Virus record (IMG/VR): IMGVR_UViG_3300037462_000333
Span: 1-25,085 of that record
Origin: a virus
Taxonomy: Duplodnaviria; Caudoviricetes
DNA: 25,085 nucleotides
Direction: 5' to 3' (one strand)
The notes below the pieces were generated by a model. It ran no database searches and had not been told where the DNA came from. It worked only from the letters and a program-made list of their open reading frames with translations. This document shows positions 3,887 through 18,741 of this stretch, in pieces. The position numbers and the translations under genes were made by a program. Within the stretch, counting starts at the first letter, position 1. Every line of letters starts with the position of its first letter.

Positions 3887-5196
3887 TGCACCACACCCAG
3901 ATCGCCCAGCGCGTGTTCAACACCCCGCTGATGGTCGATCCCGCGAAGGCGCTGGCCTTCCTGACGGGGCTTGGCCCGCGGATCACCGGCCGCGAGATCA
4001 GTGTCGATGGTCTGGAGGTCACGGCCGAGGACCAAACCAGTGCCACCCAGCCCGCTCGGGCGTCCCTCTTCGGTGATGACCTGACCAACCGCCAGGCGCG
4101 GAATGGTGGCCAGCCCTTCGCGGTGGTGGACGGGATCGCCGTGATCGAAATCGCGGGCACGCTGGTGCATCGCGGGGCCTGGATCGGGCAGTCTTCCGGC
4201 CTGACGTCGTATGAGGGGATCGCAGCCCAACTGCAGGCGGCCCTCTCCGACCCGGCGATCCGCGGCATTGCCCTCGACATCGACAGTTTCGGCGGGGAAG
4301 TGGCCGGGGCCTTTGACTTGGCCGACCGCATCCGGGCGGCGCGGGCGCAGAAGCCAGTCCACGCCTTCGTCGCGGATCACGCGCTGTCCGCCGCCTATGC
4401 GCTGGCCTCCCAGGCCGACCGCATCATCCTGCCCCGCACCGGCGCCGTCGGCAGCATCGGCGTGGTCGCGATGCACAGCGACATGAGCGGGGCGCTCGAC
4501 CAGAAGGGCATCGCCGTGACCCTGATCCATGCAGGCGCCCGAAAGGTCGATGCCAATCCCTACCAGCCCCTGCCCGAGGCCATCCGCGCCCGGATAGAAG
4601 GCGAGTTGGAAGTCCTGCGTCAGCTCTTCGCCGAAACCGTCGCCGAGGGTCGTGGCCGCCGCCTGGACACACGCCAGGCGCTGGGCACCGAGGCCGCCGT
4701 GTTCCGCGGAGAGGCGGCCGTCTTCGCCGGTCTTGCCGACGAGGTGGCCGATCCCGTCACCGCCTTCCGCGCTTTCGCCGCCGCACCCCGCGGCACAACC
4801 ACCCCCAGAGGAAAGGGCCCGATGATGACCACCACCCCCGAAGACCATGCGCAGCCTCCGGCCGCGCCTGCTGCCAGCTCCCCGCCGGAACCGGCGCCGA
4901 CCGCGGCAGTCGCACCGCCGCAGACGGAAGCGGCTGCGATGTCGTCCGAAGCCATCCGCGCCGAGGCGGCCGAGGTTGCGCAGGTCTGCGCGCAGGCCGC
5001 ACGCCTCGGCGTCCAGATCGACGCCGCCGATGCCGTCGCCAAGGGCGTGAAGCCCGAGGCCCTGCGCGCCAAGGTGCTGGCCGATCTCGCCGCACGCAGT
5101 GACGCGGCGGGCATCATCGCCACGGCCCCGGCACCCGGGGCCAAGGAAAGCCCCATCGTCGCGGCCGCCAAGAAATCCGCCGCCGCCTCGCGCTGA
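3883..5196 (+). CDS. S49-family prohead protease fused to a C-terminal scaffold domain (lambda gpC/Nu3-like)
   Basis: LDIDSFGG, SAAY (catalytic Ser region) and GSIGV motifs, followed by a Pro/Ala-rich linker and helical tail. ATGA overlap with the portal stop. Confidence 0.92.
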   Translation: MMHHTQIAQRVFNTPLMVDPAKALAFLTGLGPRITGREISVDGLEVTAEDQTSATQPARASLFGDDLTNRQARNGGQPFAVVDGIAVIEIAGTLVHRGAWIGQSSGLTSYEGIAAQLQAALSDPAIRGIALDIDSFGGEVAGAFDLADRIRAARAQKPVHAFVADHALSAAYALASQADRIILPRTGAVGSIGVVAMHSDMSGALDQKGIAVTLIHAGARKVDANPYQPLPEAIRARIEGELEVLRQLFAETVAEGRGRRLDTRQALGTEAAVFRGEAAVFAGLADEVADPVTAFRAFAAAPRGTTTPRGKGPMMTTTPEDHAQPPAAPAASSPPEPAPTAAVAPPQTEAAAMSSEAIRAEAAEVAQVCAQAARLGVQIDAADAVAKGVKPEALRAKVLADLAARSDAAGIIATAPAPGAKESPIVAAAKKSAAASR

Positions 5197-5250
5197 CAAT
5201 TACGGCCGCGCTAGCCGCACCCCATACCCCAACATCACGGAGACTGAGCC

Positions 5251-5631
5251 ATGCCCGTCCTGACGGAACCGCCCAGCATGGGCGATGTCCTCAAATACGA
5301 GGTCAACCCGAACTACACCCGCGAGGTGGTGACGCTGCTCGCGGGCACGCCCTATCCCGTCGGCGCAGTCCTCGGCCGCATCACCGCCAGCGGAAAATAC
5401 AAGCTGGCCACCAGCGGCGGCACCGATGGCGCGCAGACCGCCTCGGCCGTCCTGCTCTATGCCGTCGATGCGACACTCGCGGACGCCACCGGCATCGTCG
5501 TCGCCCGCGGCCCCGCCATCGTCTCGCGCGCAGGCCTCGCCTACGACGCCACCGTCGATGACGGGGCGAAGATCACCACCAAGATCGGCCAGCTGGCCGC
5601 CGCAGGCATCATCGCCCGCGACGGCGTCTGA
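5251..5631 (+). CDS. Head decoration protein (lambda gpD-like position)
   Basis: 126 aa with G.VLGRITASGKY and DG.QTA.AVLL patterns, GGAG RBS, located between protease and capsid. Confidence 0.88.
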   Translation: MPVLTEPPSMGDVLKYEVNPNYTREVVTLLAGTPYPVGAVLGRITASGKYKLATSGGTDGAQTASAVLLYAVDATLADATGIVVARGPAIVSRAGLAYDATVDDGAKITTKIGQLAAAGIIARDGV

Positions 5632-5680
5632 CGCGCACCAGTCAGCCGCGTTCTTCCCCTCATTCCCCCGGAGCAAGTCC

Positions 5681-6706
5681 ATGACCCTCGTCCGCAATCC
5701 CTTCGACGCTGGCGGCTATTCGCTGGCCGAGATGACGCAGGCCATCAACATCCTGCCCAACCTCTACACCCGCCTCGCCCAGATCGGCCTCTTCCGCTTC
5801 GAAGGGGTCAGCCAGCGCTCGGTCATCATCGAACAGTATGAAGGCGTCCTGAGCCTTCTGCCCTCCGTTCCCCTCGGCGGCCCCGCCACGGTCGGCACCC
5901 GGGAAGGCCGGTCCATGCGCAGCTTCGCCCTGCCGTGGATCCCGCATGACGACGTGATCCTCCCCGCCGACATCCAAGGCTCCCCCGCGCTGGGCGGCGC
6001 CTTCGACGCTGCCGATCCCCTCGTCGAAGTGATGAACCGCAAGCTGCTGCTTATGCGCCGCAAGCATGCCCAGACCCGGGAATACATGGAGATGAACGCG
6101 CTGCGCGGCATCGTGAAAGACGGCGCGGGCACCACCCTCTACAACTACTTTACCGAATTCGGCCTGGCGCAGATCTCTGTCGACTTCGTGCTCGGCACCG
6201 CGGGCACGAACGTGCAAGGCAAGGTCCGCGAGGTGCTGCGCGCCATCGAGGACAATCTTCTAGGCGAGGCCATGACCAGCGTGCACGCCCTCGTCAGCCG
6301 CGAATTCTTCGACAAGCTGATCGCGCATCCGAAGACCGAAGAGGCCTACAAGTTCTACGCCTCGACCGGCGCCCAGCCTCTGCGCGAGGATGTGCGGCGC
6401 AACTTCCCCTTCGGCGGGATCCTCTTCGAGGAATACTCTGGCACGGTGACCCTCTCGACGAAGGCCGCCGAACGGCTGGTTCCGGCGAACGAAGGGATCG
6501 CTTTCCCGCTAGGCACGATGGACACCTTCACCACCTATGGCGGCCCGGCGAACCTCCTGGAAACCGCCAACACCATCGGCCTGCCGCTCTACGCCCGCCA
6601 GCATCTCGACGAGAAAGGCCGCTGGATCGAGGTGATGACGGAAGCCTCGATCCTGCCGGTGAACAAGCGGCCGCGCCTCGCGATCCGACTGCACACGTCG
6701 AACTGA
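5681..6706 (+). CDS. Major capsid protein (lambda gpE-like family)
   Basis: 341 aa from ATG 5681 with GGAG RBS. Motifs MTQAINILPN, TREY...NALRG, FGGILFEEY and terminal P...RP. Confidence 0.93.
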   Translation: MTLVRNPFDAGGYSLAEMTQAINILPNLYTRLAQIGLFRFEGVSQRSVIIEQYEGVLSLLPSVPLGGPATVGTREGRSMRSFALPWIPHDDVILPADIQGSPALGGAFDAADPLVEVMNRKLLLMRRKHAQTREYMEMNALRGIVKDGAGTTLYNYFTEFGLAQISVDFVLGTAGTNVQGKVREVLRAIEDNLLGEAMTSVHALVSREFFDKLIAHPKTEEAYKFYASTGAQPLREDVRRNFPFGGILFEEYSGTVTLSTKAAERLVPANEGIAFPLGTMDTFTTYGGPANLLETANTIGLPLYARQHLDEKGRWIEVMTEASILPVNKRPRLAIRLHTSN

Positions 6707-6718
6707 CGGACGCAGCCC

Positions 6719-7033
6719 GTGTCCGTCTTTGCTGCCGCCATGGACCGCCTCTTTACCCATGCCTCCATGGCGGCCCCTGCCCTCTGGATCTCGGCCACCA
6801 CGTCCGAGGAACGCCCGATCCGTATCATCCGGCGCGCCCCGGATCGCGTCACCGACTTCGGCGCGGGGCGATTCTTCAGCGACACGACGGTGGTCGACGT
6901 GCGCGTGTCCGATCTCCCCGCCCCGCGCCCGGGCGACGTGATCGTCATCGGAGCGGAAAGCCATGTGATCCAAGGGGAACCACTACGCGACCGCGAACGG
7001 CTGATCTGGACCCTCGATCTGAGGCCCGCATGA
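6719..7033 (+). CDS. Head-tail joining/adaptor protein (gpFII-like)
   Basis: 104 aa, GTG start, beta-rich with P.PGD.I.I and terminal W.LDLRP, immediately after the capsid gene. Confidence 0.75.
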   Translation: MSVFAAAMDRLFTHASMAAPALWISATTSEERPIRIIRRAPDRVTDFGAGRFFSDTTVVDVRVSDLPAPRPGDVIVIGAESHVIQGEPLRDRERLIWTLDLRPA

Positions 7034-7647
7034 AGCTGAAGCTGGAAATCAGCCCCGACCTTGCCGCCCTGATGCAGGCCGAAATCGCCGCCGGTGAAAG
7101 GGCCGTCACCATCGCCATGCGCGAGGCGGGCGCGGGCCTCAAATCCGCCTGGCGCGGCCAGATCACCGGCGCGGGGCTTGGCACCCGGCTTGGAAACTCG
7201 ATCCGGCTCGCCACCTATCCCAAGGGCGGCGAAAGCCTGAACGCCGCGGCGCTGGTCTGGTCGAACGCCCCGGTGATCGTCGGCGCGCATTACACAGGGC
7301 CACTGATCCGGTCGCGCAATGGGTTCTGGCTCGCGATCCCCACCCCAGCCGCAGGCAAATCCACGCGGGGTGGCCGGATCACCCCCGGCGAATGGGAGCG
7401 CCGCACGGGCCTGCGGTTGCGGTTCGTCTACCGGCGCGGCGGGCCCAGCCTGCTGGTGGCCGAGGGGCGACTGAACAGCAAGGGGCGCGCGGTGGCCTCC
7501 CGCGCGAAAACAGGCCGCGGGCTGACCACTGTGCCGATCTTCCTGCTGGTGCCGCAGGTCAAGCTACGCAAACGGCTGGATCTGGCGCGGGATGCCGAGC
7601 GGGCTATCGACGGCGTCCCGGGGCGGATCGTAGTGGAGTGGAATTAG
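7030..7647 (+). CDS. Neck/tail completion protein, DUF6441-like
   Basis: Basic 205 aa protein (WLAIPT, VPIFLLVPQV.L.KRLD) typical of alphaproteobacterial prophage neck regions. ATGA overlap with the previous gene. Confidence 0.75.
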   Translation: MKLKLEISPDLAALMQAEIAAGERAVTIAMREAGAGLKSAWRGQITGAGLGTRLGNSIRLATYPKGGESLNAAALVWSNAPVIVGAHYTGPLIRSRNGFWLAIPTPAAGKSTRGGRITPGEWERRTGLRLRFVYRRGGPSLLVAEGRLNSKGRAVASRAKTGRGLTTVPIFLLVPQVKLRKRLDLARDAERAIDGVPGRIVVEWN

Positions 7648-8450
7648 CGCGGGGCCTCGTCCTTGCCATCCTGATAAGCACCAACCACCCAGATGAAGCT
7701 CTGAATGTCGATGCGATCACGTGGGTTCAAATCACGCAGTTCGCGGCTCGTCTGGTCCACGAGTTCAAGAAGGCTGACATAAACGTCGAAGTTCAAACGC
7801 GCCTCATAGACTGACGCAAAGGGATGCCCAACGCGCAAAGCATAGTCCTTGGTGACCTCGGGCTTGAGAAACATGTGCCGTTCTGGACGCCAGAGATATG
7901 GCAGATAGGTCACGATGGTCCATTTGGCGGCGTCGAACGGCCTCAGGACGTTTTCCAGTCGCGCGAGAGAATTCTTGTCATCGTGTTGCGCAAAGGCTGC
8001 TGCGGCTTGAATGACTGCATCTGCACTAGGACCCCGAAATACGTCCTGAAGTCTCGTTTTCTCAAATGGGGAAAGCATGTTCGTCGCGCGAAAGGCAGAC
8101 AGTACCGCCTCACCAAACCCTGACCCTGTCAGGGCCTTTTCAAGCGGTGCGGTTGTGTCCAGCTTGTTCTTCGCAGCCAGCTTGTAGTCTCGTTCTTGAG
8201 CGGCATACCCTTCTGACTGAAATCCTTCTGGGAAGAATTTGAGGAAGCGGCTGCGCGCACCCGAATAGCCAAAGTAATTCGGGTCAGACTTGCCCGCTTC
8301 ATCGTGGAGTTGCTGCCAAACCCTATCCGCGTCATCTCCTTCGACGCACACCTTTCCATCGGCCAGCCCGAAGAACTTGCTGTCCTTCTCCACAAGCCTC
8401 AGGGCCCTTTTCCCAAGATTCCCTTGGCGAATGGTTCTTGCTGCGCCCAT
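7644..8450 (-). CDS. Accessory (moron) hypothetical protein, 268 aa; candidate defence / DNA-recognition protein
   Basis: Only protein-coding gene called on the minus strand. Lower GC (sampled line 8041-8100 is 31/60 GC), GGAG RBS 7 nt before ATG, natural globular composition, motifs FPEGF..ERDYK, KWTIVTYLP.L..P..HMFLKP and PRDRIDIQSFIWV. Confidence 0.85.
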   Translation of the reverse strand: MGAARTIRQGNLGKRALRLVEKDSKFFGLADGKVCVEGDDADRVWQQLHDEAGKSDPNYFGYSGARSRFLKFFPEGFQSEGYAAQERDYKLAAKNKLDTTAPLEKALTGSGFGEAVLSAFRATNMLSPFEKTRLQDVFRGPSADAVIQAAAAFAQHDDKNSLARLENVLRPFDAAKWTIVTYLPYLWRPERHMFLKPEVTKDYALRVGHPFASVYEARLNFDVYVSLLELVDQTSRELRDLNPRDRIDIQSFIWVVGAYQDGKDEAPR

Positions 8451-8559
8451 TGCTGTGCTCCGATCAATGACTCTTGTTCAGGCTAACTGCTCCTCGGGTC
8501 GCAAATAAAGGTCCGAAAGCAGTTTTGCCTCAACGACTTGCCCTTCTGCATCGAGAAAC

Positions 8560-8982
8560 ATGCCCACTAACCGCGAATCCGCCCTCGCCGCGCTGCACGC
8601 TCGGCTGCAGCCGCTTGCCGCCCTAACCCTGCGTGACGAGATCCTGCCCGAGCGGATCCCGGCGACTGGGCTGATCATCCTGCGCGACGGCCAGCCGGGC
8701 GAGCCGGAAGTGACGCTGTCGCCGCTCCGCTATCACTACCAGCACCGCGCCGAGCTGGAGGTCGTCGTCCAGGCGGGCACCGGCCAGACCAGCGCCTTCG
8801 ATGACCTGATCGTCGCCATCGGCGCAGCGCTAGAGGCGGACCGCACCCTCGGCGGCCTCTGTGATTGGGTCGAAGCCGAGGCCCCTGCGTCGGTCGACCT
8901 GCCCGTCGAAGGCGCAGCCGCCCTCAAGGCAGCAGTGATCACCGTCGTCCTACACTATACCACCACCGGCCCCCTGGCCTGA
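8560..8982 (+). CDS. Probable tail terminator/completion protein (family often mislabelled acyl-CoA transferase)
   Basis: 140 aa directly before the tail tube, with AL.ADRTLGGLCD and terminal Y.T..PL motifs. Confidence 0.75.
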   Translation: MPTNRESALAALHARLQPLAALTLRDEILPERIPATGLIILRDGQPGEPEVTLSPLRYHYQHRAELEVVVQAGTGQTSAFDDLIVAIGAALEADRTLGGLCDWVEAEAPASVDLPVEGAAALKAAVITVVLHYTTTGPLA

Positions 8983-9006
8983 CACCCCACATTCAAGGAG
9001 ACCCCC

Positions 9007-9951
9007 ATGGCACGTGCGCAAGGCGCGCGGGCGCAGATGGCGCTTGCGTTCGAGACCAGTTACGGCACCCCGCCCGCGGGCGGGTTCACGAAGATGCCGT
9101 TTGCCAGCACCACGCTGGGGTCGGAACAGCCGCTCTTGAACAGCGAACTGCTGGGTTACGGCCGCGACCCTCTGGCGCCGATCAAGGATGCGGTCACGGC
9201 GGATGGTAATGTGGTCGTGCCCATCGATGCGAGCGCTTTCGGTTTCTGGCTAAAGGCCGCGTTCGGAACGCCGATCGTCACCGGCGCGGCAACAGGGCCG
9301 TTCACACACGAATTCCGCTCCGGTGCCTGGTCGCTGCCATCCATGTCCATCGAGACCGGCATGCCGGAGGTTCCGCGCTACGCGATGTATTCCGGCTGCG
9401 TGCTCGACAGCCTCAGCTGGCAGATGCAGCGGTCCGGTCTGCTGACCGCGACGGCCAGCCTTGTCGCACAAGGGGAAGCCATCGCCAGCGCCTCAGCTGC
9501 GGGCACACTGGCAGACCTCGACCTCCAGCGCTTCGGCCATTTCAACGGGGCGATCACGCGCGACGGCCAGCCGCTCGGCAACATCATCTCGGCCGAGATC
9601 ACCTATGCCAACAATCTGGACCGGGTGGAGACCATCCGCTCGGATGGCCGGATCGACGGGGCGGACCCCTCCATTGCCGCATTGACCGGCAAGATCGAGG
9701 TGCGCTTCGCCGATCAGGTGCTGGTGAACCAGGCCATCGCAGGCGATCCCTGCGCCCTGACCTTCGCCTACAGCCTGCCCTCGGGGGAGAGTTTCAGCTT
9801 CACGGCGCACGCCGTCTATCTCCCGCGCCCCCGGATCGAGATCCCGGGGCCGCAGGGCATCCAGGCCACCTTCGACTGGCAGGCCGCGCGCGACGCCAGC
9901 TTGGGCCGTATGTGCACCGCCACGCTCGTCAACGACATCGAGGAGTATTGA
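9007..9951 (+). CDS. Phage tail tube (major tail) protein
   Basis: 314 aa, strong AAGGAG RBS, MARAQGARAQMALAFET.YGT.P start, beta-rich, precedes the chaperone and tape measure genes. Confidence 0.88.
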   Translation: MARAQGARAQMALAFETSYGTPPAGGFTKMPFASTTLGSEQPLLNSELLGYGRDPLAPIKDAVTADGNVVVPIDASAFGFWLKAAFGTPIVTGAATGPFTHEFRSGAWSLPSMSIETGMPEVPRYAMYSGCVLDSLSWQMQRSGLLTATASLVAQGEAIASASAAGTLADLDLQRFGHFNGAITRDGQPLGNIISAEITYANNLDRVETIRSDGRIDGADPSIAALTGKIEVRFADQVLVNQAIAGDPCALTFAYSLPSGESFSFTAHAVYLPRPRIEIPGPQGIQATFDWQAARDASLGRMCTATLVNDIEEY

Positions 9952-9953
9952 TC

Positions 9954-10391
9954 ATGCTGCGTCTGAACCTCGCCCGTGAGGCTTGCTGGCTGGACCTTGC
10001 GCTGGGCGTGCGCGTGAAGGTTGAGCCCCTGACCACGGCCATCATGGTCGCCGCCCGCACCGACCCGGCCGTTCGGTCCATTGCGCCCGGTACGCCCGAT
10101 GACAGCATCGCGGTGGTCTTCGCCAAGGCCATCGCCACTCGCGCCATCATCGACTGGGATGGTGTGGGCGACGCCGATGGTACCGCGATCACCGTCAGCT
10201 CAGAAGCCATCGACGCGCTTCTCGATCTCTGGCCGATCTTCGAGAAGTTCCAGACGGCTTACGTCGCCAAGGGTCTGGAGCTCGAGGCGGAAAAAAACGT
10301 CTCGGCGCCCTCGCTGACTGGGTCTTCGGTGGGGGCGAAGGATACTGCCAGGCCTGTGAAGGGAGCTGCCCGGACTGCCCGCAAATCCTGA
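9954..10391 (+). CDS. Tail assembly chaperone (gpG-like), zero-frame product
   Basis: ATG 9954 after an AGGAG RBS, IIDWDGVGDADG motif, contains the slippery heptamer A AAA AAC at 10292-10298. Confidence 0.8.
   Translation: MLRLNLAREACWLDLALGVRVKVEPLTTAIMVAARTDPAVRSIAPGTPDDSIAVVFAKAIATRAIIDWDGVGDADGTAITVSSEAIDALLDLWPIFEKFQTAYVAKGLELEAEKNVSAPSLTGSSVGAKDTARPVKGAARTARKS
10277..10337 (+). promoter_or_regulatory. Programmed -1 ribosomal frameshift signal (SD-like GGAG, slippery A AAA AAC, downstream hairpin)
   Basis: GGAG 10277-10280, heptamer 10292-10298, 7-nt spacer, then a 12-bp stem 10306-10317/10326-10337 (3 G-U pairs) with an 8-nt loop. Confidence 0.75.
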
Positions 10392-10621
10392 ACGCCCCCC
10401 TGAGCCATGAGGGCTGGCAGATCTGGGATCTAGCGCAGCGCATGGGCGGCCAGATCCGCGCCATCCCAGGCGCGGTCCTCGGATGGGACATGACGGCCGC
10501 ACTGGCGATGGCCGCCGCCATGGGCATTTCACCCCGCGCCGTCGTCGAACTGTTGCCGGTGATCGAGGCTGTGATGGTGCGCAAGTTGAACGAAGAGAGA
10601 GAAGGTCGCCGCGATGGCTGA
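10298..10621 (+). CDS. Tail assembly chaperone gpT-like segment, expressed as a G-T fusion by -1 frameshift (not in the ORF track)
   Basis: The -1 frame is open from the slippery site to TGA 10619-10621: RLGALADWVFGGGEGYCQACEGSCPDCPQILNAPLSHEGWQIWDLAQRMGGQIRAIPGAVLGWDMTAALAMAAAMG...RKLNEEREGRRDG*. It overlaps the tape measure start. Confidence 0.75.
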   Translation, partial: RLGALADWVFGGGEGYCQACEGSCPDCPQILNAPLSHEGWQIWDLAQRMGGQIRAIPGAVLGWDMTAALAMAAAMGISPRAVVELLPVIEAVMVRKLNEEREGRRDG

Positions 10622-13076
10622 GAAGCGCGTTTCCGTCCGCCTCGCGGCCGTCGGCGGCCGCCAGGTGCGCGCCGAACTGGAAGGGATCGGCGAGGCCGGG
10701 ACGCGGGGCTTCGGCCGTCTGTCGCGCGAGATGGAGGCTGCGAACACCCGGCTTGCCGCCTTTGCCCGGCGGGCCGGGATCGCCATGGCTGCGGCCGCCT
10801 CCGCCGCCACCGCAGGCCTCGGCATCATCGTGCGCAACGCGGCCCAGAGTGCCGACCAGATCCGGCAGTTCGCGCAAGTGGCCAATGCCACGCCCGAGAG
10901 CTTCCAGCGCTGGGCGGCAGGGGCGCGCACGGTCGGGGTCGAGCAGGAGAAGCTGGCCGACATCCTGAAGGACGTGAACGACCGGGTGGGGGATTTCCTG
11001 CAGACCGGCGGCGGGCCGATGAAGGACTTCTTCGAGCAGATCGCCCCGCGTGTGGGCGTCACGGCCGAAGAGTTTGCACGCCTGTCGGGGCCGGAAGCCT
11101 TGCAGCTCTACGTGACCTCGCTCGAGAAGGCGGGGCTCAGCCAGCAGGAGATGACCTTCTATCTCGAGGCCATGGCCTCGGACGCCACGCGCCTTCTGCC
11201 GCTCCTGCGCGATGGCGGGGCCGAGATGACCCGCTTCGGCGATCAGGCCCGCTCGGTTGGCGCGATCCTCGACGGTGAGGCGCTGTCCTCGCTCCGCCAG
11301 ACCCAGATCGCACTGGGCAGTCTCGGCATGGTCTTCGACGGCATCCGCAACCAGATCGCCGTGGCCGTGGCGCCTGCGGTCACCTGGCTGGCTGAGGCCT
11401 TCGTGACCCTTGCCTCCGAAGGTGGCACGCTGCGGATGGCCCTCGATACGCTGGGCGAGAACATCGGCCGCATGGCGTCTTATGCCGCGGCCTTCGTGGG
11501 CGTGATGGCGGGGCGCTGGGTGGCGGGGCTCGCCGCCGCGGCGCTCTCCGTCCGAGGGCTCGCGACGGCACTCGTTGTCCTGCGTGGTGCGCTGATCCGC
11601 ACTGGCATCGGGGCACTGATCGTCGGTGCGGGCGAGTTGATCTTCCAGTTCGGACGGCTGGTGCAGGGCACGGGCAGCGTTGGGGCCGCGCTGGGCCTCT
11701 TGGGCGATCTCGCCCGTGAGGTCTGGGATCGCATGAAGCTCGGCATGGTCGCGTTGGGTCTCTCGATCATGGCGGGCTGGGCCGAGATCAGCGCAGGCAT
11801 CACCGCCGCCTTGCAGACCGGTCTCGAGGCGGTGGTGGGATTCGGGAATGCGACGCTGAACACATTTCAGGGGGCGATGGAGGCGGTGAAGGTGCTCTGG
11901 TCGGCGCTGCCTGCCACCATCGGCGAGTTCGCCTATGGCGCGGCCAATGCGCTGATAGGCGGGGTCGAGGCCATGCTGAACGGCGTGGCCGCGCGCATCG
12001 ACGGCTTCCTTGAAGGGATCAATGCCGGTCTCGACGTGCTAGGCATCGAGAAGCGGGTGCCGCTGATCGGCACCATCGAGCTGGGCGGGATCGAGAACCC
12101 GTTTGAGGGGGCTGCGGCCAATGCCGGGGCGGAGGCGCGTGCTGCGTTCGAGGCGGCCTTCAACAGCGATCCCATCGCGCCGCCCGATCTCGGCCTGACC
12201 GCCGCAGCCGAGGCGGCGCGGGGCGAAGTGGCGCGACTGCGCGACATGATGGGTGAGGTGGCGACAGCTGCCACTGCGCCCCTGCAGTCTGTCGCGGCCA
12301 TGCGAGAGGCCGTCTCGGCCTCCGGCACCGAGGCTGCCGACGGGCTCGAGGACGCGCGCACGGCCGCGACAGGTCTTGGCACCGCCCTGCAGGGAGCGGG
12401 CGAGGCTGCGGAAGCTGCGGGCAGTTCGGGGCGCGGCGCAGGCGATGCGCTGCGCGAGGGGGCCGATGCCGCGAAGAACGCATGGGAGGCCACGGCCGAG
12501 GCGGTGCGCAAGGCGCAGGAGAAGTCGCGCGAGATCGCGCAAGGCCTCGCGCAGGACATCACCGGCCCGATCAAGGAGGCCCTGACCTCGGGGGAATTCA
12601 CCTGGGAGACTTTTGCGGGGGCGATTTCGCGGATCGCACAGAACCTCGCCACGCGGCTAATCGATCTGGCCTTCAAGCCCATCGAGAACGCCCTGATCAA
12701 CGCCTTCTCGGGCGGTGGCGGGTTCTTCGGCAGCCTCTTTGGTTTTGCCAAGGGCGGGGTCTTTGCCGGGGGCGCGGAACTGACCGCCTTCGCGCGGGGT
12801 GGTGTGGTGAACCGGCCGACGGTGTTCCCCTTCGCCAAGGGCGTGGGCCTCATGGGCGAGGCAGGGCCGGAGGCCATCCTGCCCCTGCGCCGCGGCAAGG
12901 GCGGCAGGCTCGGGGTCGAGATGAATGGCGATGGCGACGCTGCAGCATCCTCCATGTCGACGCGCATCATCAATGTGCTCGACCCGTCTGTCGTCGGCGA
13001 CTACCTCGCCACGCCTTCTGGGGAACGGGCCATCCTGAACGTCATCCGCCGCAACCGGGGCGCCATCAATGCCTGA
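10614..13076 (+). CDS. Tail tape measure protein
   Basis: 820 aa, Ala/Gly-rich and helical, with hydrophobic mid-segments and C-terminal FAKGG...GLMGEAGPEAILPL. Follows the chaperones. Confidence 0.93.
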   Translation: MAEKRVSVRLAAVGGRQVRAELEGIGEAGTRGFGRLSREMEAANTRLAAFARRAGIAMAAAASAATAGLGIIVRNAAQSADQIRQFAQVANATPESFQRWAAGARTVGVEQEKLADILKDVNDRVGDFLQTGGGPMKDFFEQIAPRVGVTAEEFARLSGPEALQLYVTSLEKAGLSQQEMTFYLEAMASDATRLLPLLRDGGAEMTRFGDQARSVGAILDGEALSSLRQTQIALGSLGMVFDGIRNQIAVAVAPAVTWLAEAFVTLASEGGTLRMALDTLGENIGRMASYAAAFVGVMAGRWVAGLAAAALSVRGLATALVVLRGALIRTGIGALIVGAGELIFQFGRLVQGTGSVGAALGLLGDLAREVWDRMKLGMVALGLSIMAGWAEISAGITAALQTGLEAVVGFGNATLNTFQGAMEAVKVLWSALPATIGEFAYGAANALIGGVEAMLNGVAARIDGFLEGINAGLDVLGIEKRVPLIGTIELGGIENPFEGAAANAGAEARAAFEAAFNSDPIAPPDLGLTAAAEAARGEVARLRDMMGEVATAATAPLQSVAAMREAVSASGTEAADGLEDARTAATGLGTALQGAGEAAEAAGSSGRGAGDALREGADAAKNAWEATAEAVRKAQEKSREIAQGLAQDITGPIKEALTSGEFTWETFAGAISRIAQNLATRLIDLAFKPIENALINAFSGGGGFFGSLFGFAKGGVFAGGAELTAFARGGVVNRPTVFPFAKGVGLMGEAGPEAILPLRRGKGGRLGVEMNGDGDAAASSMSTRIINVLDPSVVGDYLATPSGERAILNVIRRNRGAINA

Positions 13077-14217
13077 ACTCTGGCCTTTCCCGGCGGCGCA
13101 GGAGATCACCGAGGTGCTGGAATGGCGCACGGATGTGCTGCAGTCCCAGGCTGGCGAACAGCGCATCGCGCTCAGATCCCGCCCGCGGGAGATCGTCACG
13201 GTCCAGCATCGCTGCGACGCGCTGGCCATGGCGCGGGCGGCAGAACTGGTGCGGGCGGGGTTTGCCGCCGAATGGCGGGTGCCGCTCTGGAACATGGCGA
13301 TGCAGCCTACGGCGGATCTGGCGCAGGGGGCGACGGAGATTGCCGTCGACACCGCCATGGTGGATTTCCGGGCGGGGGCCACTGTGGCGATCGCGGTGGA
13401 CGGACGCGAGCCATCGCTCGCGGAGATCGTCAGCGTCGAAGCAGATCGGCTGATCCTGATCGAACCGCTGACAACGCAACTGCCCGCCGCAACCGTGGCG
13501 GCTCAGCGCGTGAGCATCGCGCCGGTGCGGGCAGGAGTTCTTTCAATCCCTGTCGAGATCGCACGCCGTCGCCAGAATGACGGGATGGTCTCCGCCACCT
13601 TCCTGATGCGCGATGCTCCGGATCTGACCGCGCCAGTGCTGCCGACCTATCTCGGCCGCGCGGTACAGATCGACCCGAGCCTGACCCGTTCGCCGATCAC
13701 CGCCAGCCTTCGCCGTGCCGTCGAATATGTCGACAACGGTTTCGGGCCAGTCGTGGTCGAGCCGCTGCGGGATCTGTTCGAGAGGGGCGAGGCGATCACC
13801 CTGAAGGCGCAGGGCGCGGTGGAACGTTTGGCGTTGCGCCGCTGGCTCTGGTCACTCCGTGGCCGACAAAGCAGCTTCTGGTTGCCGACCTGGGGGCGTG
13901 AGCTGCAGCTGCGTGCGGCCATGACTTCCGGATCCACGCTGATGCGCGTGGTGCCCGTTGCGGAACTGGCGGCCTATGTCGGGCGCGCCATCCTCCTCGA
14001 GATGCCGAGCGGGTTCCGGTTCCGGACGATCAACGCGGCTGTGGCGGACGGCGCGGATCACCGGCTGACGCTGTCTTCGAGCCTCGGCGAGCCGGTGGCC
14101 ATCGGGACGAAGGTGCATTTCCTGACGCTGGTGCGATCGGATGCGGATCGCGTGGAGATCCGGAACGGCGCCGTGGCCAGTGAAGTGACCCTGCCGGTCG
14201 TGGAAGTTCTGGAATGA
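13069..14217 (+). CDS. Tail-tip/baseplate protein, probable distal tail (Dit-like) with two related halves
   Basis: 382 aa directly after the tape measure gene. GEQRIALR..PR near the N-terminus, and a paired WRVPLW / FWLPTW motif. Confidence 0.6.
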   Translation: MPELWPFPAAQEITEVLEWRTDVLQSQAGEQRIALRSRPREIVTVQHRCDALAMARAAELVRAGFAAEWRVPLWNMAMQPTADLAQGATEIAVDTAMVDFRAGATVAIAVDGREPSLAEIVSVEADRLILIEPLTTQLPAATVAAQRVSIAPVRAGVLSIPVEIARRRQNDGMVSATFLMRDAPDLTAPVLPTYLGRAVQIDPSLTRSPITASLRRAVEYVDNGFGPVVVEPLRDLFERGEAITLKAQGAVERLALRRWLWSLRGRQSSFWLPTWGRELQLRAAMTSGSTLMRVVPVAELAAYVGRAILLEMPSGFRFRTINAAVADGADHRLTLSSSLGEPVAIGTKVHFLTLVRSDADRVEIRNGAVASEVTLPVVEVLE

Positions 14218-15074
14218 CCTACGCCACCATCGAGTCCTCGACCGCCGAGGGCCGCCCCTATTACCTCTACCAGTTCGTCGAGGGCGATCAGGTCTGGCGC
14301 TTCACGAGCCGGGCCATCGACTGGACCAGTGCAGCCAGCGAAGGCGATGCGATCACCTGGGAACCAGCCGCCATTTCCCATGGCGATGTGGTGCAAACGA
14401 GCGAGATCGAGCGAGGGCGGCTGGAACTGACCTGGCCGCTGTCGCACCCCTTCGCGCGCCGCTTCCTTGCGCCCTTGGGCAACACGCCCGTGACGCTGAC
14501 CATCTTCCGTGGCCATGAGCAGGTGCTGGGCGAGACAGTCGCCCATTGGAAGGGCCGCGTGGTGGGCGCCGAGGTCGAGGGCGTGCGGATCCTTCTGAAC
14601 TGTGAATCCGTCTTCAGCACCCTACGCCGGGCGGGGGTGCGGGCGAAGTACCAGCGCCTTTGCCGCCATGCGCTCTACGGCCGTGGCTGCGGGCTCGACA
14701 TCGGGTTCCACTGTCAGACGGGCACCGTGACGGCCGTCTCGGGCAATGCCCTGACCGTCCTGGAGGCGGCGGGACAACCCGACGGCTGGTTTCGTGGTGG
14801 GGTGCTGCGGTTCGGGGCGCAGCTTGGGTTCATCACCGGCCATGTCGGAACGACCCTGACCCTGTCGCGCCCGATGCCGGAACTGGCGGCAGCTCTCGCA
14901 GCTCCCGAGGTCGACCCCGAGACCGGCGATCCTCTCCCCCTTGTCGCCGACCTCGCTCCCGGTTGCGACCTGCGCGCGGCCACCTGTGCGGCCAAGTTTG
15001 GCAATCTCCCGAACTTCGGCGGCTTCCCCGAGATCCCCGGCCGCAACCCCTTCGGCGGCAGTTCCATCGTCTGA
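14214..15074 (+). CDS. Baseplate hub protein, BR0599/DUF2163 family (lambda gpL-like, probable Fe-S cluster)
   Basis: CRHALYGRGC and PGCD....TC..KF.N..NFGGFP.IP..NP motifs. Confidence 0.88.
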   Translation: MTYATIESSTAEGRPYYLYQFVEGDQVWRFTSRAIDWTSAASEGDAITWEPAAISHGDVVQTSEIERGRLELTWPLSHPFARRFLAPLGNTPVTLTIFRGHEQVLGETVAHWKGRVVGAEVEGVRILLNCESVFSTLRRAGVRAKYQRLCRHALYGRGCGLDIGFHCQTGTVTAVSGNALTVLEAAGQPDGWFRGGVLRFGAQLGFITGHVGTTLTLSRPMPELAAALAAPEVDPETGDPLPLVADLAPGCDLRAATCAAKFGNLPNFGGFPEIPGRNPFGGSSIV

Positions 15075-15079
15075 CCGAA

Positions 15080-15123
15080 GCGCTTGCAGAGAAAGTTGCC
15101 CGACTTTCTCGGTTCGCAAGCGC
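15080..15123. repeat. Intergenic palindromic element (interrupted stem-loop)
   Basis: GCGCTTGC(15080-87)/GCAAGCGC(15116-23) enclosing GAGAAAGT(15089-96)/ACTTTCTC(15103-10). Confidence 0.65.
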
Positions 15124-15144
15124 GACCACTGAGAGACGCCATCC

Positions 15145-15393
15145 ATGGTCTGGACCTTCATCGCGCGGCTCGTCCTTGGGCTCGTGCTTTCGGCGATTTC
15201 CTATGCGCTGAGCCCGCGGCCCAAGGTCGAGAAGCCGCAAGCGGCGGGGCTCGACGATTTCACGCTGCCAACGGCAGAGGAAGGCCGGCCGATACCGGTC
15301 GTTTTCGGCACGGTGCTGATTACCGGCCCGAATGTCGTCTGGGCCGGGGACCTGAAGGTCGATCCCATCAAGAAGAAAGGCGGCAAGAAGTGA
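15145..15393 (+). CDS. Small tail-tip assembly protein (N-terminal hydrophobic helix, PTAEEGRPIPVVFGT motif)
   Basis: 82 aa. The P.PVVFGT motif and Lys-rich end are typical of tail-tip proteins following BR0599. Confidence 0.75.
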   Translation: MVWTFIARLVLGLVLSAISYALSPRPKVEKPQAAGLDDFTLPTAEEGRPIPVVFGTVLITGPNVVWAGDLKVDPIKKKGGKK

Positions 15394-15620
15394 CCCGCGT
15401 GACGATCCAGGACCTGCGCGCCGCCCGCTACTGCCTCGCGGGCGTGCGGCCGTGGTTCCGGCGCCATGGGCTCGACTGGCAGGCGTTTCTGGACAGCGGC
15501 ATCGAAGCGGACGCCTTGCGCGCCACCGGCGATGCGCTGGTCGAACCGGTGATCCGTCAGGCCGAGGTGCGACTGGCTGCACAAGGAATGTCCGACACGG
15601 AGGCGAGCAATGGGCGGTAG
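15390..15620 (+). CDS. Small tail-tip associated hypothetical protein
   Basis: GTGA overlap start at 15390, motif YCLAGVRPWFRRHGLDWQAFLDSGI, overlaps the next gene start. Confidence 0.72.
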   Translation: MTRVTIQDLRAARYCLAGVRPWFRRHGLDWQAFLDSGIEADALRATGDALVEPVIRQAEVRLAAQGMSDTEASNGR

Positions 15621-18600
15621 GAAAGCCCAGACCGTCGGCTACCGCTATTCGCTGGGGGTCCATCTGGCACTCTGCCACGGGCCGGTCGATGCGATCCGCG
15701 AGATCCTCGTCGACCGTCGCACCGCCTGGTCCGTCACGACTGGCGGGGGTTCCTCCGGAGGCGGCGGTGCAGCAGTAGAGACGCGGATTGGCACGGTCAC
15801 TGGAATGACCGCCACGGCGGCACTGGCAGGCGACAGCGGCGCAACCATCAGCTTCCCCGGCACCCGCGCAGGCGTGCGCATCGGGCAGGACTTTCGCCTG
15901 GCGCTTGCGAATGGCAGCAGCCAGACGATCACTCTGCAGGCCGTCACCTTCGATGCCGCGACCAACACCACCCGCTGGACCGTGCTGCCCGAAGCCCTGA
16001 GCTTCGCCGCCCAGACCGTCTGGGTCTTCGAGTCCACCACCGGCGCCAGCAGTGCCGGTGCCGGTGGCGGTCGCATCCGGATCGACAAGCCCGACCTTTT
16101 CGGCGGCGAGAGCCGCGAGGGCGGCATCCGTGGCGACGTCGATGTGCTGATGGGCGGGCCAGGACAGGGGGCGAACGACTATCTCGCCGCGCGCATGGGT
16201 GGGGACGTGCCTGCCTATCGCGGCCTCTGCAGCCTCGTGCTGCGGCAGGTCTATCTCGGCATCAACCCGTACCTGAAGCCATGGGCCGTGCGCGTGACCC
16301 GCGTGCTGACAGGCGAGGCAGGCGCGGCACAATGGTATCCCGAGAAGGCGGCCATCGTGCCCGAGGCCAACATCTCGGATGCCGCGATCTACATCGCCCT
16401 CGACGTTTCGGGCTCCATGTCGGGCACGCGCATGTCGGCCCAGAAGGCAGGCGTCGCGGCGCTCATCCGCGAGATCGCCGCGGGTGTGGATCCTGACCGG
16501 CCGAACGATATCCGCATCGTTCTCTGGAACGTGGCCGTCGCAGGATCCATCGAACGGCGCAACATGGGGCCTGCGGACTATGCCGCGCTCGAGGCCTGGA
16601 TGCTGGGGCTCTCGAACTTCACGAATGGCGGCACCAGCTTCAACGCGGCCTTTACCGAGGCAAACGCCTTCTTTGCAGGCAGCGGATCCAAACGCCGGAT
16701 CGTCATCTTCGTGACCGATGGAGAACCCGCACCCGTCTCTTCGGTCGATGCGGCGCTGGCGATCATCCGCACCCTGCCGCCTGCGGACATCTTCGGCTTC
16801 AACATTGCGCTCGCCGACACCTCCTACACAGCGCGCATCGACAACACGCCGGTCGACGGGGTGCCGGTGATCCCGCCCGGGAACCCGCAGGCGCTGGTCG
16901 CGTCGCTCCGCGGGGCCTTCGGCAACGGCCCTGACATGAACCCGGCCCATATCATCCGGGAATGCCTGACCAACCGCGACTGGGGCCTTGGCTATTCCTA
17001 CGTCGAGATCGGGGCGAGTTTTACCGCCGCCGCAGATGCGCTCTATGCCGAGGGCTTCGGGCTGTCGCTGATCTGGCAGCAGGACAGTTCCATCGAAGAG
17101 TTCATCGCCAGCGTCCTCGACCATATCGACGCCACGCTCTTCATCGACCGGCGCACCGGACTCTGGGAACTCAAGCTGATCCGGGCGGACTATGTGGCTG
17201 CGACGCTGCCCCTGTTCGACGAGACCAACGTGGTGGACTGGGGCCGACTTGGCCGCCGGTCGCCCTCCGATCTGGTGAACTCGGTGACGGTGCGGTTCAC
17301 CGATGCCTGGACCGACGACACCGGCGCGGTCAGCGTGACCGACACCGCCCGCGTCCAGGCGATGGGCGAAGTGCTGGCCACCACGCTCGACTATCCGGGC
17401 ATCCGCTATCAGGGACTCGCCGTGCGTGTGGCCGAGCGCGACTTGCGTGCACTGTCGGCACCACTCCTGACCGGTGAGATCGTCGTCAACCGCGAAGGGG
17501 CAGACCTCGGACCCGGCGACGTGATCCGGCTGCGCTCGACGCGGCTGGGTCTGGATGACGTGGTCATGCGCATCTCGGAGATCGGCCAGGGCGACGGGCG
17601 CGACAATGGCATCCGGCTGAAGATCGCGGAGGACGTCTTCGCGCTGGGCGCGACCGCAATCGCGGGCGGTCGCATGCCCACCGGCACCGGTGTCGCTGCT
17701 CCGCCGCGGGCATTGGCCCGGCGCATGGTCGACGAAGCCCCGTACTGGCTTCTCGTCCGCGAGCTTGGCCACAGCGAGGCCGACCGCCGCCTCGCCGAGG
17801 ATCCGGACGCAGGCGCGCTGGTCGCGACCGGTGAACGCCCCAGCGCCGATGCGCTGGCGGCCCAACTCTGGATCGATCCCGGCACCGGACCTACGCAGGA
17901 GGGGGTGGTGGCCTTCACCCCGACAGCGTTGCTGGGCGCCGACGTGACGGACAGCCCAGAAGCGCGCGTGATCCCGGTGACGGGCTGGCGCGACATTGGC
18001 GAGGTCGAGATCGGCACGCTGGCCAGCATCGGCGGCGAGCTGGTCCGTGTCGACGGGATCACGCCGACCAGTATCACCGTGGGTCGGGGTTGCCTCGACA
18101 CCGTCCCGCGCGCACATGCCTCGGGCACGCCGGTCATCTTCTTCGACGGGGTGGCGCGGATCACCGAGGACAGCTGGGCGGCAGGCGAGACGCTGGCCGC
18201 GCGGCTCCTGCCCGAGACCGGACGCGGTACGCTGGCCTTCGCGCTGGCCCCGGAAGATGCCGTGACGCTGGACAGCCGCGCCATCCGCCCCCTGCCGCCC
18301 GGGCGCGTGCAAGGGAATGGCAGCTACGCCCCCAATGTCGATGCGCTGGTCATCGGCCCACTCGCCCTGACCTGGACGCATCGTGACCGGCTGACCCAGA
18401 CGAGCCCCGTGATCGTCGATCACACCGGGGCCTCGATCGGCCCCGAACCGGGTGTCGGCTACATCATCGAGGTGCGCTGGGTGGATCCGGATAGCGGCAT
18501 GGCCATCCTCCCCGCAGGCGTGGTGATCGATGCAGGCACAGCGGCCAGCTGGACCCTTGCGCCGGAGGCCATCCCGGAACTCGGCGCCCCGGATCGCACG

Positions 18601-18741
18601 GCCGAGATCGAGCTCGCAGTCCGTTCCCGGCGTCTGGTCGAGGGCAGCTGGGTCACCGACCGCGAGGCGCGGTGGTTTCGGCTGACGGCGCCCTTCGCCG
18701 CCGGATGGGACCGCGGCTGGGGTTTCCTCTGGGGCACCTGA
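15610..18741 (+). CDS. Central tail/tip protein (Phage-tail_3 / gpJ-like) with inserted VWA domain
   Basis: 1043 aa with LCHGPVD, PDLFGGE.REGG, PAYRG, DMNPAHII and PGDVI tail motifs. VWA MIDAS DVSGS...GGT...VTDG at about 16381-16920. Ends GWDRGWGFLWGT. Confidence 0.88.
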   Translation: MGGRKAQTVGYRYSLGVHLALCHGPVDAIREILVDRRTAWSVTTGGGSSGGGGAAVETRIGTVTGMTATAALAGDSGATISFPGTRAGVRIGQDFRLALANGSSQTITLQAVTFDAATNTTRWTVLPEALSFAAQTVWVFESTTGASSAGAGGGRIRIDKPDLFGGESREGGIRGDVDVLMGGPGQGANDYLAARMGGDVPAYRGLCSLVLRQVYLGINPYLKPWAVRVTRVLTGEAGAAQWYPEKAAIVPEANISDAAIYIALDVSGSMSGTRMSAQKAGVAALIREIAAGVDPDRPNDIRIVLWNVAVAGSIERRNMGPADYAALEAWMLGLSNFTNGGTSFNAAFTEANAFFAGSGSKRRIVIFVTDGEPAPVSSVDAALAIIRTLPPADIFGFNIALADTSYTARIDNTPVDGVPVIPPGNPQALVASLRGAFGNGPDMNPAHIIRECLTNRDWGLGYSYVEIGASFTAAADALYAEGFGLSLIWQQDSSIEEFIASVLDHIDATLFIDRRTGLWELKLIRADYVAATLPLFDETNVVDWGRLGRRSPSDLVNSVTVRFTDAWTDDTGAVSVTDTARVQAMGEVLATTLDYPGIRYQGLAVRVAERDLRALSAPLLTGEIVVNREGADLGPGDVIRLRSTRLGLDDVVMRISEIGQGDGRDNGIRLKIAEDVFALGATAIAGGRMPTGTGVAAPPRALARRMVDEAPYWLLVRELGHSEADRRLAEDPDAGALVATGERPSADALAAQLWIDPGTGPTQEGVVAFTPTALLGADVTDSPEARVIPVTGWRDIGEVEIGTLASIGGELVRVDGITPTSITVGRGCLDTVPRAHASGTPVIFFDGVARITEDSWAAGETLAARLLPETGRGTLAFALAPEDAVTLDSRAIRPLPPGRVQGNGSYAPNVDALVIGPLALTWTHRDRLTQTSPVIVDHTGASIGPEPGVGYIIEVRWVDPDSGMAILPAGVVIDAGTAASWTLAPEAIPELGAPDRTAEIELAVRSRRLVEGSWVTDREARWFRLTAPFAAGWDRGWGFLWGT

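Follow-up and report, generated by a model that had tools for sequence, protein, structure and literature searches.

The 25,085-nucleotide (nt) window analysed here spans positions 1 to 25,085 of the IMG/VR virus record IMGVR_UViG_3300037462_000333 (Caudoviricetes) and carries a cluster of lambda-like genes for head, neck, tail and lysis. Its neck genes are interrupted by an antisense gene (P0001; 7644–8450, minus strand) with an ATG start, whose 268-residue product is predicted to join a small N-terminal β-domain to a domain of helix-hairpin-helix (HhH)/OGG2 fold. The TAA stop of this gene overlaps the TAG stop of a convergent DUF6441 neck gene (family match PF20039; 7030–7647, plus strand), and 109 bp separate its ATG from the start of the tail terminator (family match phrog_4204; 8560–8982, plus strand); comparison of related loci defines the interval between these two flanks (7645–8559, no strand) as a hypervariable cargo slot. 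The guanine-plus-cytosine (GC) content of the cargo gene is 0.55 (0.60 at third codon positions), against 0.70 (0.84–0.85) in both flanking genes and 0.68 across the remainder of the window as far as 22595. A Shine–Dalgarno-like GGAG (8458–8461, minus strand) lies 7 nt upstream of the ATG, and a putative −10 hexamer TAnnnT (8480–8485, minus strand) recurs 29–31 nt upstream of the start in five of five divergent slot copies checked; a consensus scan around the gene matched no promoter and no terminator. Coordinates, composition, the GGAG and the 109-bp upstream gap all agree with the initial annotation, which had described a low-GC antisense gene with its own ribosome-binding site inside a plus-strand morphogenesis operon.

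A chance reading frame is excluded, because 1,172 of 2,357 candidates proved to be homologues of the protein; its family has 1,054 representatives in a 50% identity library. Library and database scans returned no family match and no Protein Data Bank (PDB) sequence match. Compared with eight slot homologues, the gene shows a non-synonymous divergence (dN) of 0.10–0.18 at near-saturated synonymous sites, with a ratio to synonymous divergence (dN/dS) of 0.03–0.06 in the six of eight pairs for which dS was computable. The cargo gene is genuine and is evolving under purifying selection.

Using each flank as a query gave 157 viral loci (best 80 per search of about 600 matches). Loci with both flanks yielded 101 distinct slot sequences, every one filled, by 348–2,930 bp in either orientation; their 183 open reading frames (ORFs), some of them possibly shadow frames, form 118 clusters, 91 of which are singletons. 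The family of the 268-residue protein fills 4 of the 101 slots and other cargo the remaining 97, which supports the status of the gene as a moron. The control junction between the head-closure and DUF6441 genes measures ≤12 bp in 137 of 138 loci, and that between the terminator and tube genes is longer than 300 bp in 10 of 145. Family scans of 99 of the 183 cargo ORFs gave 12 matches to defence-type families (DRT9, pVip, PvuRts1I, AbiV, Abi_C, OGG-like PF21790, FRG, PD-Lambda-2B-like, PDC-M24B, WYL, HNH and NERD), 6 toxin–antitoxin parts, 3 MuF fusions and a few unrelated genes (histidine kinase, globin, polysaccharide lyase and transposases); 60 of the 99 cargo representatives have no Pfam match. 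Variable fillings, tight neighbouring junctions and 12 defence-type matches therefore mark the slot as a hotspot for cargo in which defence genes are clearly represented. Low-GC variable cargo in either orientation, known defence systems among it, also lies between conserved core genes in the prophage defence hotspots of P2/P4 and in lambdoid morons; the present slot differs in its alphaproteobacterial phage group, lambda-like head and position within the neck genes. The literature searched contained no description of either the 268-residue family or the neck-gene slot.

Individual fillings include DRT9 (locus L170, 2324–3871), prokaryotic viperin (L183, 6034–6888), PvuRts1I (L176, 865–1746) and OGG-like PF21790 (L166, 3094–3861) cargo. 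MuF-domain fusions are the commonest slot cargo (L154, L185, L168, L110, L201, L167 and L117), with variable C termini, one of them CdiA_C-like. Across 99 slots (L100–L255; 8500–8562 in the window) the variable DNA reaches as far as the start codon of the tail terminator, and its last 60 nt contain no conserved Shine–Dalgarno sequence.

The gene occupies the same slot in ten viral contigs and three bacterial genomes. The ten slot copies placed in a quick tree form a single clade (Shimodaira–Hasegawa-like approximate likelihood ratio test 99), and slot copies have diverged to 74–84% identity under purifying selection; together these sequence comparisons suggest that the gene was captured into the slot once and then long retained. 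Among the best 80 of 161 genome loci, 3 lie in the prophage slot, 21 in class I operons resembling the defence island system associated with restriction–modification (DISARM), where the gene is located 3′ of drmMI and/or 5′ of drmA, and 56 elsewhere. The DISARM label changes at least four times on the tree (forced by starred branches), and occurrence is patchy (9 genomes of 401 in one sample and 7 of 401 in another count). Defence neighbours in the scanned subset of the other 56 loci comprise type III restriction–modification, Zorya, Gabija, Druantia E, GmrSD, SIR2, Abi_alpha, SoFic and PDC candidates; metabolic genes are also numerous there. The enrichment of homologues beside defence genes, raised as a test in the initial annotation, is supported.

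Among 400 evenly sampled Hyphomicrobiales genomes, the central one not counted, drmB occurs in 16, the helical domain in 6 and both in 1. An HKD-bearing DrmC is missing from every one of the six closest control DISARM operons, and the gap between drmMI and drmA holds varied cargo, the 268-residue family in one of the six. The gene is therefore the passenger of a second variable slot and not a DISARM subunit. Membership in the class I DISARM core (drmD/MI/A/B/C) was likewise rejected: PADLOC gave no match, only one of the six closest control operons contains the gene, and no Drm-type domain occurs in the 24 window proteins scanned. At one locus (L289, a single case on a long branch) the gene is intact between frameshifted drm genes. 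Here decayed drmD, drmMI and drmA surround it (4500–15200) within what is left of a prophage from the same family, and the DUF6441–terminator slot of that prophage is filled with other low-GC DNA. A class I DISARM-like subtype of Alphaproteobacteria (L277–L282, L016–L083) has no HKD DrmC after drmB, and its drmMI–drmA gap is often taken by a helix-turn-helix (HTH)-M78 (RmrA-like) gene and a gene for a 170-residue protein. Elsewhere in the window, a 742-residue GmrSD_N protein (PF03235; 22596–24824, plus strand; GC 0.60) follows the lysis genes and is likely a second cargo for modification-dependent defence; L069 has a copy with 69% identity beside a DISARM operon that carries the 268-residue family. 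A Phage-tail_3 protein with an internal VWA domain is encoded at 15610–18741 (plus strand).

The 268-residue protein consists of an N-terminal domain of residues 1–57 (8280–8450, minus strand), with four strands and one helix predicted, and an all-helical C-terminal domain of residues 58–262 (7665–8279, minus strand). Conserved in the latter are E86, K90, E130, W177, T181, K196, D245, D248, Q250 and W254. A DUF3553 Tudor-like domain stands in place of residues 1–57 in a sister family, McrB-like relatives carry the same helical domain N-terminal of AAA_5 in a gene adjoining McrC, and homologues at six loci (L256, L270–L274) fuse it to a nuclease or GTPase effector; the window protein has only its 57-residue N-terminal domain, with no fused nuclease or GTPase. 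E86, K90, D245, D248, Q250 and W254 are common to solo and McrB-fused domains, E130 is not. Three-part proteins of about 420 residues (P0289, P0313 and P0390) consist of DUF3553, the helical domain and an unannotated C-terminal domain. The initial annotation had pointed to the DUF3553 and McrB fusions, quoted several motifs and marked off a distinct N-terminal domain of about 55 residues; homologues contain both fusions and conserve the motifs, and the short domain ends at residue 57.

Structure prediction gives the C-terminal domain the two-lobed helical HhH fold of the HhH-GPD DNA glycosylase superfamily. The nearest solved folds are repair enzymes, with OGG2 closest (Tm1821, 3n0u; MjOgg, 3knt; SsOgg, 3fhg) at 6–10% identity. 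Active-site residues were placed by eye, with conservation counted in 106 sequences. Predicted secondary structure and this by-eye register against a Tm1821 segment put the probable HhH and GPD-loop region at residues 159–208 (7827–7976, minus strand), where Tm1821 Trp-Lys to Leu-Asp matches W177–T178 to L195–K196 without gaps and with the same predicted secondary structure. The Lys and Asp of the Tm1821 segment we take to be catalytic. So aligned, the Lys that bifunctional OGG2/EndoIII glycosylases carry after the hairpin is absent (position 178 is Thr in 55 and Pro in 34 of 106), as is the Asp 18 residues on at the helix N-cap, where position 196 is Lys or Arg (K196 in 94 of 106) and is followed by P197 in 96 and E198 in only 54; an alternative register puts W177, Trp in 106 of 106, at the catalytic-Lys position, with K176 Lys in 59 of 105. 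Mapped by spacing only, a Dag1-type D-x3-W is also absent, Q250-x3-W254 standing instead (Gln in 88 and His in 10 of 103). The protein is apparently without the usual catalytic residues of glycosylases. Of the earlier suggestion of a glycosylase-like protein, the fold therefore stands as a prediction, and canonical glycosylase chemistry is not supported.

We favour, at a probability of about 0.4, the reading that this swappable prophage-hotspot cargo is a one-gene anti-phage system, in which the predicted OGG2-like domain of the protein would bind non-canonical phage bases without canonical excision. On context alone, defence of some kind is highly probable. We infer that an antisense promoter of its own would drive the gene in the lysogen, that a non-canonical base of incoming phage DNA would be flipped into a pocket of E86, K90, Q250 and W254, and that the bound protein would block phage transcription or replication. 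The small N-terminal domain may serve as a DNA-affinity or host-protein adaptor where relatives carry an McrB, nuclease or Tudor domain, and, with OGG2 as the nearest fold, modified guanine is our first guess at what it binds. Only tentatively do we extend this to an effector-free END-type sensor that defends alone: an OGG2 fold with its catalytic pair replaced (Lys for Asp) that would stop modified-DNA phages by binding or new chemistry. Such a protein would be the stand-alone version of a domain that recurs with McrB, HNH-like and Tudor partners, and its undescribed hotspot among the neck genes would contain about a hundred more candidates for defence in alphaproteobacterial prophages.

Below the modified-base binder we rank, in falling order of probability, a non-canonical enzyme, a different trigger, an accessory role and repair. 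The protein could be an active glycosylase or abasic-site lyase that destroys modified phage DNA like Dag1, with K196 as the attacking nucleophile and either E130 or E86 supplying the acid. According to bioRxiv 2025.10.29.685425, Dags are solo HhH-fold enzymes of mobile AT-rich DNA, and the present gene also lacks a fixed partner, conserves E130 only among effector-less forms and mostly keeps K196 at the putative active-site N-cap. That preprint gives K118, D184 and W188 as required in Dag1, but their likely equivalents here, mapped by spacing, are Thr, Gln and Trp, and most other conserved residues are common to McrB-fused domains, whose nuclease comes from McrC; such an enzyme is on balance unlikely. 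Defence might instead be set off not by a modified base but by, for example, a phage protein, abasic sites or DNA ends, with abortive infection as a possible outcome; this would suit a defence context that is strong yet silent on the ligand. The sister-family DUF3553 is Tudor-like and related to an RNA-polymerase-binding domain, as PMC6511836 describes it, but the conservation of pocket-type residues with domains in the McrB specificity position makes this reading improbable.

The scatter of the 21 DISARM-like loci across the tree, and GmrSD-like genes ≤10 kb away in 5 of 80 loci and present in the window, could instead point to an accessory sensor that acts in trans and delivers modified DNA to separate machinery, be it DISARM, McrBC or GmrSD. 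Against this, drm genes are absent from the prophage clade, the drmMI–drmA gap is itself variable, the control operons lack HKD DrmC with or without the gene, and in the long-branch case above the gene outlasted its drm neighbours; we consider an accessory role quite improbable. Least probable is a factor for DNA-damage repair or protection, or neutral cargo, without an anti-phage role: the closest solved folds are repair enzymes and many solo copies sit among metabolic genes, but patchy distribution, movement between defence slots and purifying selection all speak against it.

The gene and the hotspot are real, and the defence context and fold are well supported. The idea of an inactive glycosylase fold sensing hypermodified phage DNA has so far been based on domain swaps in fused nucleases, and a natural stand-alone version makes binding, specificity and any cryptic chemistry directly testable. 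If true, our favoured reading would explain what a large unannotated family does, and likewise many 'DUF3553 domain-containing proteins' and a specificity domain of McrB; the slot, most of whose scanned cargo lacks a Pfam match, doubles as a catalogue of genes that may act in defence.

The protein resembles an END sensor or a Dag, yet misses a defining feature of each. The sensor domain of END nucleases (iEndoIII) is described in PMC12191111 as an HhH EndoIII/OGG-type domain without catalytic residues, as the window domain appears to be in our register, and is reported there fused to McrB-like GTPases, as relatives of the window domain also are. The window protein differs in having no PLD, NucS or McrB domain and no match to PF21790 (OGG-like), either by hmmscan or by profile comparison with one PF21790 protein, where the END paper used HHpred. 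Dag1 and Dag2, glycosylases whose group defends against phages with 7-deazaguanine, share with it, as bioRxiv 2025.10.29.685425 describes them, a single-gene form, HhH fold, x-x3-W C terminus and a mobile, AT-rich setting linked to defence genes; the window protein adds an N-terminal β-domain, and its context is prophage and DISARM versus the Vibrio integrons of Dags. From OGG2 8-oxoguanine glycosylases it is set apart by low identity, the apparent loss of the catalytic pair and mobility, OGG2 being housekeeping. McrB proteins of McrBC type IV restriction carry a specificity domain; the window protein has neither their GTPase nor a nuclease, and its helical domain is the one that stands N-terminal of AAA_5 in McrB-like proteins beside McrC.
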